A stretch of 64,000 nucleotides of DNA from Podarcis vaucheri (Eukaryota), in NCBI GenBank assembly GCA_965113315.1, contig OZ220377.1. One strand, given 5' to 3'. Each line of letters begins with the position of its first letter. Position 1 is the stretch's first letter. Of this stretch, positions 36,486 to 42,600 are shown piece by piece. A model generated the notes under the pieces. It was not told the DNA's origin. It saw only the letters and a program-made list of their open reading frames with translations, and searched no databases. Made by a program: the position numbers and the translations under genes.

Positions 36486-38209
36486 ATCTCTATATTAGTG
36501 CTGCTTTGTTGGACCGTTTTATTTAATCATGAGTGAATGAATGATCTTCCTGGAGCCTTTCCTAGAGGAGGATATAACCCGGGGCTGCTCTGTTTCTCCT
36601 AGGTGAAAAAATGACTTTTCAAAAGAAAAGGTTGGTGGTTAACAACTTGGAGAGGGCCCTTAATTTAACTGTGTCAAGAGCAGGCTGGGATCAGTGCCAT
36701 TATGGACTCCACAGCACTTTGCAGAAAAATAATAAATCACAGGTCCCTGGCTTGAGAAATTTCAAGCTGAATATTCAACACATGGCAGGCAATGTTTTTA
36801 TATGGCTTTTCAGGCAAAACAAAGCCATTTAGATAAAATCATTCAAACGGCCTTTGGCAACCTGGTGCCCTTCAGATGTTTTGGATAATTGTTCCCATCA
36901 GCCCCAGCCAGCTGGTCCAAGGTCTGCATGCAGCCCCAGCCAGCTGGTCCAAGGGCAACTTTCCAGGGCCTGCATGTATGCCAGTGTTGGGCAGGGCCAC
37001 AGGCAAAAGTGGCTGGAGGAACAGATATGACCCTTCCCTTTGGACAGAAGGGAAGCCATGTAAAAGTCAGAATTTCCACACAGACACACGCTTCCACCCC
37101 AGCAAGCAAAGAAGCAGTCACAGCTCAAGGGTGTATTCCAGACATGCAAAAGCACTTGAAGGCCATTGCTGCAGCAGCATTTTTACAGGAGAGGTTTCCT
37201 AACCCATGCTACCAAGCCTGAGTTGACAAACGACTAAAGCATATTTTGGAAAAGCCATCTTAAAATATCCCCCCTTTTTTAAAGTGTGGGGGTGGGGGCT
37301 CAGACCTACTTGGCAACCCTGCTGATTGTAAGGCCACCTGTGGGGCCCTGTGCATTTCATTCATATAAAGCACCTAGTATATTTTTGGCACTTACATAAA
37401 TTGGGGTGACAATTCTAAGAGCATGGGGCGAGGTTTGTTAGTTTATTAGTGGCAAGGGGAAAAGCTCTGTATATGCACAGAGCTACATTTATTACATTTA
37501 ATTATTTTCAGATTTAGGTGGCAATTACAGTTAAGGGTGGGTAATGTTCAAACACTATGGTTTATGTATATGCATTTTTTGCATAAGTTGGGAAAGTGTC
37601 CTGAACACATGCAGTTCTCCCTCAATCACCAAATTTGAGAATGAGGAACATAGGAACCCAGCTGCTGTGTTTGGCCAAAGGGGACCCATCAAGTCCAGCA
37701 TCCTGTTCTCACCATTGATGGTAACATCCTCTAGGAAAAGCCAGCCAGCCAGCCAGCCAGCCATTCACTGGCTCAGAGCACCCTTTTTAATTTGTAAAAG
37801 TTATGGGGCTCAGGCTACGTACACCACATTGAGTTCCTTGGAGGAAAGGGGATATAAAGGTAATAAAAATTGTAGTATCCATGTCAAGTTGTGAGCCAAC
37901 AGGAATTTTATTCATGTGCTGTGTGTAATGTATTTTTAGCCTGTTTATGAAGGTGATTCCAAGAGTGCAGAATCTTGTGCTCTTGAGGTGAGGGCAAAGC
38001 ATCCTTTGTACAGATTTGTTACAACCTATACCAATTTGCTATATGTTAACTATTTCCATGATGTGCATTTGTGTTTACGTAGCCAAGGTGTATATTGTTT
38101 TTGTTTTTTAATGACATTTGCACATCATCTCAGGGAGGGAGTAAAAGGGAACTCTGAAAACTGAGGTGATTATTATTTTAAAAGATGCACTTGTTCAGTT
38201 TGCAGAAAT

Positions 38210-39620
38210 AGCACGCAAACGAAGCAAAGAACTGCGAGATGCGGATTTGGGGGCGAGGGGAGGAAATGGATGAGAAAATCCATAAGATTTTCGCAGGTAT
38301 CAAGTCGCCTATCCCAAAGATAGCCTGGCAACACACGACTCGAGGCACGTGCCGCCGCGTGTGCAATACGTTATCGTTACTATTTACTGTTTTGTCAAAT
38401 GATTATTGTTGTCGTTGTTGTTGTGTTTATATTTTTATGTGTTTGCCCAATCGCCGTTGTTGTGGGGGGTCAGTTGTGCGGTTTTGGCGGGAGACAACGA
38501 AAGCGGCCTCGGCGCGTGCCTTTCCCGCCCGCCTCTGCCTCGTCGGCGGCGGCCCCGCGGGTGATTGACGGCGGCGGCCGTTGGGGGAGGAAAAAAAAGC
38601 CGCCGGTCCCTCGCGCCGTCCGTCCGTCCGTCCGTTGGGCCGTCCTGAGGCGGGGGCCATGGGGGCAGGAAACGAGTGAAAGGAAAGGGGGAAGAAGGAG
38701 GGGTGTCTCGCTCTGAGGTGCGCGCGAGGCCTCGCCGCCCGTTTCTTCCTCCTCAGAAGCGCCATGGAGGACTCGCTGCTGTCGGCGGCGCCCATCAACC
38801 CCAACAACTTCCCGGCCAAGCTGTGGCGGCTGGTGAACAGCCCGCGCTTCCGCTCCATCCGCTGGGACGCCCGCGGCGAAGGGCTCCTCATTGACCAGCC
38901 CTTGTTCGAGGCGGAGCTCCTGGGCGCCGGGGGAGGAGGAGCAGGAGGAGGAGGAGCCGGGGGAGGCGCGGCGGTGGCGGCCGTTGGGGGAGGCGGCCCA
39001 GGCGGCGATGGAGGCGGCGCCTCGGCCTCGTCGTCGGGCGTCCCCTCAGGGCCGCCCGCCTCCCCGGAGCTATTCAAGACCACCAACTTCACCAGCTTCA
39101 TCCGCCAGCTCAACCTGTACGGCTTCCGAAAAGTGGTGCTGGGCCCGCCCGGAGGGGGAGGCGGAGGAGGGTCGGCCTCGTCTCCTTCGGCCTCCTCGGC
39201 TTCCTCCTCTTCCCCGGCTTCGTCGTCGTCCTCGGCCCCCGGCGGCCCTTTGCACCATTTCCACAGCCCGCACTTCCGCCGCGACCGGCCCGACCTCTTG
39301 GTGCACCTCAAGCGCCTGACCAGCGCCAACAAAGCCAAGCTGGCCGCCGGGCTGGAAGTCACCAGCCGCCCGCCCAACCGCTTCCAGCGCCTCCTCAGCA
39401 CTTCCCTGCACGGCGGGGAGGCCCTCCTGGCGCAGCAGCACCAGCAGCACAACAGCCCCGCGGGGCAGGCCGCCGCCGCCGTGGCAGCAGCAGCAGCCGC
39501 CTCCGCCGCCGGGGCGGCCGCCAAGAGCAGCGACAACAAGCCCGGTGAGAGAGACGGCGCGACGCAGCAACAGCTCCTGCAAGACCAGAAGGCTCTTGAG
39601 CACGTGCAGAGTAACCACAG
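38210..39620. promoter_or_regulatory. HSF5: CpG island covering the HSF5 promoter and exon 1
   Basis: Abrupt rise in GC and CpG density. CCAAT 38447-38451, E-box 38346-38351, E2F-type sites 38482-38493 and 38521-38529. Confidence 0.9.
38764..39544 (+). CDS. HSF5: HSF5 exon 1 (HSF-type winged-helix DNA-binding domain with Gly/Ser/Ala-rich inserts)
   Basis: Kozak gccATGG and donor CCCG|gtgaga, phase 1 matching exon 2. Confidence 0.93.
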
Positions 39621-42600
39621 CCTGCCAAGGGCCGTCGAAAGAGCCTCCAGGGTTCAACCTCACACCCCCACCCACCCACAAAAAAAGCATTTAGTTTCTT
39701 GAACAAGGGCAGCAAAAAGCTTTGTGGCACCCATTTTATGGATCTCTTTAGGCAGCAGTCCTAGCTCTACTTACCTAGGAGTGAGCTCTGTGGGATTCAG
39801 TAGAGCTTACTTCTGAGTAGACATTTAAATTGCTCACAGACTGCTTCAATAGTTCAAAATCCCAGTGCACTGTGCAAAAGAATAAAAAACATTCAATGCA
39901 TGTGTTAAAACCCACCAATATAAGATAACAGCGTAAAATAAAATTTATCTGTCACGGTAATATATAGACCAGGTAAATAGAAAAGGCTTCGATGGAACTA
40001 AGACATTTTTAGCATATGTAGTTGGCATGTGCCTTAGTTCCAAATATGAACTAGCTAAAGATGAATCTTAAAACTGAAAAAAGGCATAAACATTCTGCTT
40101 CAACAGAATCACCAAGTGTTGCCCACAGTTGACAGTTCTGTCTATGTGTAGATTACACATATGTATATGGTCACACAGGATGGAAGTTCATGTCATAATA
40201 AATATATTAGCCTTTAAGGTGCCACAAAACTTGGTCTGCTGCAGAAACAACACACAGTGACACACACACACACCCCGTTCTTAGCAGCCCATGGAGAGCT
40301 GCTGCCACTCAAAATACATAGAATTGGACTGTATGTTCATTGCCCCTTACAGCAAAATTCACTTTCATTTTTAAATGGAAACTTCTAGTCCCACATAATG
40401 GTTGGATGTGTGAATGTGGCTGCAGTTACTCAGTGCTGATGTGGAATGCATATGACAGGCACGCACCAGAGTTTAGTTCTAGCATTCAGATTTAAGCCCC
40501 CTATGAACACCTCCCACAAGTTGAAAGCACCTTGGTACCACATGTGGACATAGTTCCATTCATACACATGCCTCTGCCCAATTTCCTAGGGTATGAAAAT
40601 AGACACTGTTGAAATTCATCTAGCCTCTTTTCAAGTAATCATGCCATTCACTTCAGTTCTAACATTCTCTGAAACAGCCTTTTGGTCCAGATTAAACCTT
40701 ATCCTCTGGATCTATAATCACAAAAACGCTTGTTTGAATCTCCCACTGTGTCCATATGTACTGACTGAAAGGGCAGGAGGAAAATCCATTCTGTTACCAT
40801 CTTAAGCTATCCAGCTTCTGAGTACCATAGGAAAGTTCAGATACCTCCACAAGCATCTAATTTATATTAACTAAAATTAAACACGCAACCTCAGCAAACA
40901 AGATCACAGGATATTCACAAAGTCATACTCCAGAAGATTGGTGGTGGTAGCAGGTGCTCTATCTCCTTCCCTCTCCTACTTCATGTGTTTCAGCTCTGCA
41001 ATGCCTTAGCTGAGAAGACTCCTCCCACCACAAACTCCATCTACATTACTGTTGCACTCATTGCGATAGAGATGTGGGGCAAGAGTCTCTTCTATTGCAA
41101 ATCAGTGCAGAATAACTCCCCCTTCATGATACTGTCCTATTGCATAATGCATATACTGTAAATTTCAAGTTTGCTTTCTTCAGAGAACAATGGAAAATAA
41201 AGAACCTGAGATCCTAGTCAGGGCTACAATTTATTAATTTTTTTTGAGGAGAAACAGGTGGTTAAGTGGACTGAATTTTGCTGCGTAGATATGCCCACAA
41301 ATACATTTTATCTGTTCCCAACCTTTAGGGCAAGTGTGCACCAGCTCATTTTGTACACTAGTTGTCGCTGTATACTGCAATTAGCTGGTGCAGTTTGCAT
41401 CTTATATCACCCCCCCCCAAGAAAAAGTAGAGCACCTCTAAGAAGAATTAGTCTTGCTAAACAAATTGGACCATTTCTTATCCTAGCCATTGTCTCACTC
41501 TTCCTTTACTACTTTCCTCAGCCCAAGGAATAATGATATTTATTTTTATAGCTGCTACAATTAAGCAACGTTCACAAGCCTCTTCTCCTCTTTTGCATAC
41601 CCAGTAGGGTGCAAAAATGACTGCACAGTATTTCGAGCCCTAGCCTCAAACCCAAAGAGGAGGTTGTGTAGCTGATGGTCCTACTAGGTTAATGATACAA
41701 AAGGAAAGGAAACAGGAGGCAAAACATTGGGTTGGAGATTGCCCTTCCTCCATTTTTAACACAATATACATTTTTAATTTATATCTATCTTCCCCCCCAG
41801 CTCAGCCTGAGGAGGAAATGTATAAACATCAATAATGGGTGAAAGTACTGCTAACCTCTGCAGGGAGATAAAGAAGGCCCACCCTTTAGAAGAGCAGTGC
41901 ATTTGCCTGAGATATACACCTTATAGACAGGGACTCTTCACACAACACACAATTCCTACACAAATACCACATCCATACAAGAAACGCCCACAAATACAAT
42001 AGAATGTGACAAATAGGAAACTGGTCTATGCAGCTCAATATTGTCTGCGCTGACTGGCAGGGGCTCTCCAGGGGTTCAGGCAAGGAGTCTCTCCCAGCCC
42101 CTTAAGGAGTTCTGGAAGTTCGGTATTGAACTTGGGACGTTTTGCATACACTGTGCCATGGCCCTTGTTAATTTCTTTTTAAACAAGTTTATTTAAAACA
42201 TCCACTTATCCTCAGTTTAGTTCAGAGAAGTGAATAACAATGAATTAAAACAATGTTAGCTGTTTTAACAGTGGAAATGCTGAAGCAGCAGGATATAAAA
42301 CAACAAATTGCCATTAAAAATATTTTATCTAGAGATCCTATACAAATAAAAATAAAAATACAAGGACAACTTCTCATGGTCAAAACTCTGGTTAGTTTTT
42401 AAAAACCAAACAGCTGTCAGTCTGTTAACTGGGCGAGAGTTATAATAAGAGCTCTGCCTCATGAGACTGAAGGCCTATCTAGTCCAGCATCCTGTTCTCA
42501 CAGTGGCCTACCTGATGCCTTTAAGAAGCCCACAAGCAGAAGATGAGTGCAACAGCACTTTATTGATTTGTGATTCCCTGGCAGCCAGCAGTTGGTATTC

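Follow-up and report, generated by a model that had tools for sequence, protein, structure and literature searches.

The meiotic-entry switch is known across vertebrates at the level of its proteins, whereas its DNA code has been shown, in the papers found, in mouse and human only. The closest described system is the mouse STRA8 motif (Kojima, de Rooij and Page, 2019, PMC6392498). The word CNCCTCAG is the top motif at mouse STRA8 peaks and its copy number scales with binding, according to the accessible part of that paper. Meiotic and other mouse genes differ in mean copy number (2.0 vs 0.63), in the share with at least one copy (78% vs 46%) and in the number with at least six (5 of 85 vs 5 of 15871; 26 of 15871 in human), and CpG-island promoters with five or more copies give about ten times the ChIP signal of those with none (PMC6392498). 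For Hsf5 the accessible part of the paper gives one motif, binding in one replicate (three for well-bound genes), the score 'not STRA8-bound' and no up-regulation at meiotic entry (log2FC -0.21).

A MEIOSIN motif, TGWGGDRR, has been described in mouse (Shimada et al., 2026, PMC13637641). As far as its accessible text goes, that study reports MEIOSIN with both domains in reptiles, finds more motifs in early than in late targets, and classes Hsf5 as a late, possibly indirect target. MEIOSIN shares the STRA8 consensus according to a review, and STRA8 is expressed in Pogona gonads according to a published report, both sources being available in part. Yoshimura et al. (2024, PMC11059408), in the sections available, count Hsf5 among the MEIOSIN/STRA8 targets on the strength of a peak at the mouse locus, and find HSF5 protein only from mid-pachytene and hardly any expression in the fetal ovary. 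The placement of mouse Hsf5 downstream of MEIOSIN/STRA8, from which the preliminary description of the lizard locus had started, is thus backed by the peak of Yoshimura et al. but not by the score of Kojima et al. or the late class of Shimada et al., each paper being available in part.

The lizard system resembles that of Kojima et al. in that the same word lies within 1 kb of a CpG-island gene start, the meiotic enrichment is of similar size, and SIX6OS1 tops the tested sets in both species. It differs in that mouse is known by ChIP and human by counts, while lizard is known from sequence counts alone, and in that lizard uses TNCCTCAG as often as CNCCTCAG (18 and 19 copies at meiotic promoters). 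It also differs at HSF5, with six copies in lizard and one in mouse, where the orthologue is not motif-rich, well bound or entry-induced; since the mouse promoter has a single copy, scored as not STRA8-bound, conservation of a mouse cluster does not account for the lizard one. The MEIOSIN motif, described in mouse only, has Hsf5 as late in the accessible text, whereas lizard HSF5 is early-like and motif-rich by CNCCTCAG count. The gene of Yoshimura et al. is orthologous and has peaks at its locus, but that description, in the sections available, is one of peaks with no motif cluster and of a protein present from mid-pachytene onward. A literature search over titles and abstract openings, with subscription papers mostly outside its coverage, returned no report of the motif outside mammals.

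The HSF5 locus and its motif copies

The window, that is, the whole stretch of lizard DNA analysed (64,000 nt), contains HSF5 coding exon 1 at 38764..39544 (+), from the ATG at 38764 to a GT donor at 39545; the alignment of the P. muralis X1 isoform runs past this donor to about 39624. The best matches of the exon are HSF5 proteins (97% identity to Podarcis muralis HSF5), and it encodes a split HSF DNA-binding domain (Pfam HSF_DNA-bind) with the SFIRQ helix and a low-complexity insertion ahead of the helix. Four further exons were placed downstream, at 43.7-50.0 kb. Upstream lie phosphatase- and FYVE-like exons, which by synteny we take to be MTMR4. About 120-130 kb upstream of HSF5 (G000:C37:15.34-15.36 Mb, L299 and L300) are first exons that we take to be METTL27- and VKORC1L1-like; these genes presumably hold the position of TEX14/RAD51C near human HSF5, which suggests a rearrangement. 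The promoter and exon 1 share a CpG island at 38251..39775 with 145 CpG, the sole strong island of the window (GC 0.72 and CpG observed/expected 0.90 over 38480-39560; 0.9-1.2 across the island). Two raw RNA runs of unspecified tissue gave 0 reads and one partial read on the stretch upstream of HSF5.

An exact recount recovered all six copies of CNCCTCAG of the preliminary description, with the same coordinates and strands. The distal copy (CACCTCAG, 38161..38168, -) lies 600 bp upstream, beyond the CpG island, and also matches the MEIOSIN motif TGWGGDRR. Three proximal copies, at 38645..38652 (CGCCTCAG, -), 38713..38720 (CACCTCAG, -) and 38749..38756 (CTCCTCAG, +), fall within 112 bp ahead of the ATG, as had been claimed, from 119 to 8 bp 5' of 38764; the last, 8 bp from the ATG, matches TGWGGDRR as well. 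The other two are in coding exon 1, at 39042..39049 (+), read as Val-Pro-Ser-Gly within the low-complexity insert, and 39391..39398 (+), read as Leu-Leu-Ser. In all, the six comprise two coding copies, one distal and three proximal; four of the six match TGWGGDRR, and HSF5 scores six exact copies within 1 kb for any assumed centre from 38400 to 38764. The copy at 38749 resembles a pyrimidine tract followed by CAG, but its reading as a 3' splice site is disfavoured because a contig of a related lizard (relative G) continues unbroken across it, though this contig may be DNA.

Elements for E2F6/MGA (PRC1.6) and A-MYB mark germline promoters, and words of these types adjoin the lizard cluster. Four MYB-type sites (consensus YAACKG) start at 38454, 38471, 38578 and 38632 (38454..38637, -; 0.68 expected), two E2F-type sites (consensus GGCGGGAR) lie at 38486 (+) and 38522 (-) (38486..38529; 0.12 expected), and an E-box CACGTG at 38346..38351. 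The likeness to such promoters is qualified by the assignment in lizard through consensus words and by the marginal E2F enrichment counted per gene (p about 0.05); as a hexamer, the E2F-type TCCCGC ranks 10 of 2080 at lizard meiotic promoters. The E2F6 motif was also found enriched in mouse, according to the accessible part of Kojima et al. (2019, PMC6392498).

Relative G is represented by one contig, about 89% alike and of depth 9.9, which spans 38356-38780 and hence the upstream stretch only. Of its 25 differences 20 are listed as substitutions, four of them in 38601-38750. One of the three proximal copies is broken (38713..38720, its core lost by one substitution at 38717), and two, including that at 38645..38652, are without a listed change; the second E2F-type site is broken, and three of the four MYB-type sites are without a listed change. 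A neutral rate of 5-6% predicts about one change per 21 motif bases, as observed, so these losses indicate neither constraint nor its absence. Should the contig derive from RNA, the proximal copies would be part of the 5' UTR.

Motif density at HSF5 and at lizard meiotic promoters

The whole window contains 19 copies of CNCCTCAG against 12.0 expected, and the excess at HSF5 stands up to local 1-, 2- and 3-mer shuffles: six copies within 1 kb of the ATG against 0.35-0.73 expected (none of 3000 shuffles reached six), and three in the 250 bp ahead of the ATG against 0.05-0.18. The earlier expectation of about one copy per 8 kb, given for uniform composition, was too low. CpG-poor DNA of the same genome has about one per 6 kb (116 copies in 730.5 kb, observed/expected 1.04), and control promoters one per 2.6 kb.

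Housekeeping control promoters were taken as matches to a YY1-type consensus word in the same genome (117 places; the reversed word gave 0), and 92 of the 100 listed matches, in listing order and with one overlap removed, gave 91 controls. These have 0 (45), 1 (30), 2 (10), 3 (5) or 4 (1) copies per 2 kb, with a mean of 0.76; none reaches five or six, and one of the 91 has three copies inside 120 bp. A density similar to that at HSF5 was not found among these 91 controls, their maximum being four against six, and a negative-binomial fit to the controls gives P(at least six) of about 5e-4. A further set, selected by TCTCGCGAGA, consisted mostly of CpG-rich repeats, and 4 of its 15 loci were retained as controls.

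Meiotic genes were found by family searches, the promoter being the closest CpG-rich segment, repeats excluded, that lay at the first coding exon or 5' of it, and motifs were counted in 2-kb windows centred on the CpG peak (16 usable promoters, HSF5 left out). At 14 of the 16 the motif positions had been seen before the rule was fixed, and the centres are partly post hoc. Paralogue names in this set rest on Pfam and recognition of the sequences, and the TEX12 and SYCE3 segments are judgement-based. Eight genes were left out ahead of the count: SYCE1 and REC8 gave no match, the promoters of DMC1, MAJIN and SPDYA were unlocated, and STAG3, HSF2BP and ZCWPW1 were unconfirmed as genes. Candidate promoters of ZCWPW1, HSF2BP and a second Speedy gene, whose identities are unconfirmed, have 2, 0 and 0 copies.

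These squamate meiotic promoters are enriched in the mouse STRA8/MEIOSIN motif, about twofold against the 91 controls and about 3.8-fold after adjustment for composition. The mean per 2 kb is 1.56 at the 16 meiotic promoters against 0.76 at the controls (Mann-Whitney p=0.0027; 1.27 and p=0.0072 without SIX6OS1), and at least one copy is present at 14 of 16 against 47 of 91. SIX6OS1 has six copies, RAD21L1 three, SYCE3, SYCP2 and two MEIOC-family genes two each, two HORMADs, SYCP1, SYCP3, SYCP2L, PRDM9, TEX12 and EAF2 one each, and SMC1B and SPO11 none. RAD21, RAD51, MAD2L1 and SMC1A have none either; the control EAF1 exceeds EAF2 (three copies against one), and the XRCC3/ZFYVE21 island has four. 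Permutation of gene labels against the 91 controls gave p<1e-4 (0.0007 without SIX6OS1 and PRDM9). Against 16 controls of paralogue, neighbour and BANP type the exact motif gave p=0.014 (0.08 without SIX6OS1) and the core hexamer CCTCAG p=0.002 (0.006 without SIX6OS1). In GC-matched controls (n=15) 15 kb yielded 2 copies, whereas the 16 kb of meiotic promoters yielded 19.

The core CCTCAG occurs 41 times at the 16 meiotic promoters against 12.0-17.5 expected. In a model that takes in the composition of each promoter separately and uses the control rate, it ranks 3 (order 1) and 4 (order 2) among 2080 hexamers, and CNCCTCAG ranks 14 and 56 among 16384 gapped words. In the unadjusted ranking of gapped 8-mers CNCCTCAG is 196th of 16208, below AT-rich words, because the two sets differ in GC (0.51 at meiotic promoters vs 0.61 at controls, with CpG also lower in the former). 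Runs of GCGCGC/CGCGCG outrank CCTCAG as the most enriched hexamers at the 16 promoters. The flanks of the lizard sites yield the consensus YYNCCTCAG, derived post hoc from the sites found: of 46 sites, 40 have a C or T at position -3 and 42 at -2. The MEIOSIN motif TGWGGDRR, with 6.4 copies per 2 kb at meiotic and 3.5 at control promoters, has the reverse complement YYHCCWCA, which overlaps this consensus. At the level of sequence YYNCCTCAG thus bridges the two mouse motifs, CNCCTCAG and TGWGGDRR.

Other motif-bearing promoters

SIX6OS1 was tested first because the mouse gene has 14 copies (PMC6392498). In lizard five copies of CNCCTCAG lie in 180 bp round a first exon that is non-coding and precedes the exon with the ATG, and one more in intron 1; the five are interleaved with E2F-type words (L054:7165-7345; G000:C1:9347165-9347345). 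This promoter is the best squamate site for trying binding. Other high mouse counts were not retained in the lizard genes chosen for them: SYCE3 has 2 (6 in mouse), PRDM9 1 (6), SMC1B 0 (5) and EAF2 1 (5), while RAD21L1 has 3 (0).

Upstream of a HORMAD gene (L058:4550-4800) four CCTCAG cores lie in an inverted repeat some 170 bp long, two per arm; this repeat may be a co-opted MITE-like element. A PRDM9-type gene (L118:2200-2960 and L296), with SSXRD, a PR domain verified by Pfam and a zinc-finger array, has six to seven CCTCAG cores and one exact motif. Two multi-exon MEIOC-family genes, at G000:C34:44.50 Mb and C33:58.46 Mb, have two motifs per promoter; the mouse list has one Meioc (Kojima et al., 2019, PMC6392498). 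The STAG family was found at four loci (G000:C19, C42, C18 and C25), the C18 copy being divergent. A TEX12-like match at G000:C1:88415726-88415914 carries five stops and is likely a pseudogene.

A genome scan for motif pairs gave 121 matches, and 61 places were inspected (28 returned loci and 33 picked mostly for CG-rich spacers). Five of these have six to seven copies and two have five; SIX6OS1 is the only known meiotic gene among the five. The other four, CpG-island promoters at L226 (G000:C10:81.97 Mb), L257, L260 and L205, belong to genes that are candidates for unrecognised germline targets. The 61 places yielded no new meiotic gene, Pfam being blank for three of the richest loci. The recognisable genes with two to five copies are non-meiotic; by Pfam they include adenylosuccinate synthetase, a KRAB zinc-finger gene and a COQ10-type gene, and we take further motif pairs to lie at KIF5C-, MED29- and semaphorin-like first exons. 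Since non-meiotic or unnamed promoters have five to seven copies, a rich motif cluster is rare but not diagnostic of meiotic genes. The KRAB zinc-finger promoter (L232, G000:C10:134.09 Mb) combines four motifs with E2F-type words in tandem, and a minisatellite downstream adds more CCTCAG cores.

Interpretation of the cluster and of the enrichment

Given these counts, the word is probably a functional meiotic code in squamates. Its clustering at HSF5 and its enrichment at lizard meiotic genes make it likely that reptiles use the same switch proteins to read it. The comparisons are best explained by a code that persists as an excess of the word at meiotic promoters, while individual sites come and go and their positions are not fixed. 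Conservation of the entry code in squamates, as put forward in the preliminary description, thus gains support from the enrichment, while its HSF5-specific premise is weaker and one of the three proximal sites is broken in relative G. We tend to regard the HSF5 cluster as a real, putatively functional homotypic cluster. We also lean, a shade less firmly, towards the island being a composite germline promoter, at which putative binding of lizard MEIOSIN/STRA8 would raise or prime transcription at entry. On the mouse model, MEIOSIN/STRA8 would bind the proximal three copies in germ cells entering meiosis, presumably additively, because in mouse both binding and induction grow with copy number, and this binding would amplify or prime HSF5 transcription. 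The four MYB-type sites would supply a later pachytene boost, and the E2F-type sites with the E-box would impose somatic silencing, these being the usual roles of such elements.

The motif could also be a genuine lizard code and yet have gathered at HSF5 by chance, in one lineage, within an island that is GC-rich and low in complexity; the gene would then be late, as in mouse, and driven mainly by A-MYB through the four MYB-type sites. We consider this unlikely, though it has several observations in its favour: mouse Hsf5 has one copy and is late, as far as the papers were accessible; two lizard copies are coding and one distal; a proximal copy is broken in relative G, where three of four MYB-type sites are without a listed change; MYB-type sites number four against 0.68 expected; and other promoters have six to seven copies, the motif having been sought with the identity of the gene known. 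It is opposed by the control-promoter tail of about 5e-4, as against at least six copies in 5 of 85 mouse meiotic genes, by the MEIOSIN/STRA8 peak reported at mouse Hsf5 in the available sections of PMC11059408, and by the literature search, in which no Hsf5-A-MYB link appeared in titles or abstract openings. Departing from the composite-promoter reading in the opposite direction, YYNCCTCAG could be an amniote-wide entry code that predates the mammal-reptile split, its strength redistributed by turnover, with lacertid HSF5 a strong, early and direct target. Having six copies against one in mouse, the gene would then switch on at entry, perhaps in both sexes, and not late or in males only; this extension of the sequence counts is rather doubtful.

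It is improbable that CCTCAG is a general promoter-proximal element with another reader (initiator-like CTCAG, AP-2-like or zinc-finger) and that the excess reflects promoter class. Such an element would fit the controls, in which observed/expected stands at 1.8 and 31 of the 69 copies fall no more than 200 bp from the anchor, as well as the motif pairs at non-meiotic genes named above, including those presumed from KIF5C-, MED29- and semaphorin-like exons, and the control sets are without tissue-specific non-meiotic promoters. Yet observed/expected is 6.9 at meiotic promoters against 1.8 at the 91 controls and 3.1 in the second control set, the copies occur on both strands, unlike an initiator, and the accessible part of PMC6392498 reports the AP-2 consensus as not enriched at STRA8 sites. 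The same part of that paper has mouse STRA8 binding many non-meiotic CpG-island genes, so non-meiotic clusters need not be false. A mutational origin, in which CpG decay turned CCGAGG into CTGAGG at germline promoters with partial methylation, would agree with the lower GC (0.51 vs 0.61) and CpG of meiotic promoters, but was rejected as very improbable, the sister decay words not being enriched (GTGAGG 588 and 1278, TTGAGG 1155 and 1424, ATGAGG 167 and 126 of 2080 in the two rankings); CpG-poor tiles with observed/expected of 1.04 and the CpG observed/expected of 0.9-1.2 in the HSF5 island also stand against it.

With the code read by the entry switch, as we prefer, the lizard sites would represent a known mammalian element in a new lineage, a view which the independent gene set supports and whose direction a specialist would expect. 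The enrichment found in lizard makes the code at least as old as the ancestor of amniotes, about 310-320 My. Should the word still be enriched at meiotic promoters of lineages without STRA8 (zebrafish, hagfish), its reader would be the MEIOSIN HMG box, and a comparative motif count is a cheap assay for the question of the reader raised in the accessible text of Shimada et al. (2026). The HSF5 cluster is useful as a test bed, and the promoters described here offer candidate control sites for squamate meiosis, including that of parthenogenetic and hybrid lacertids.
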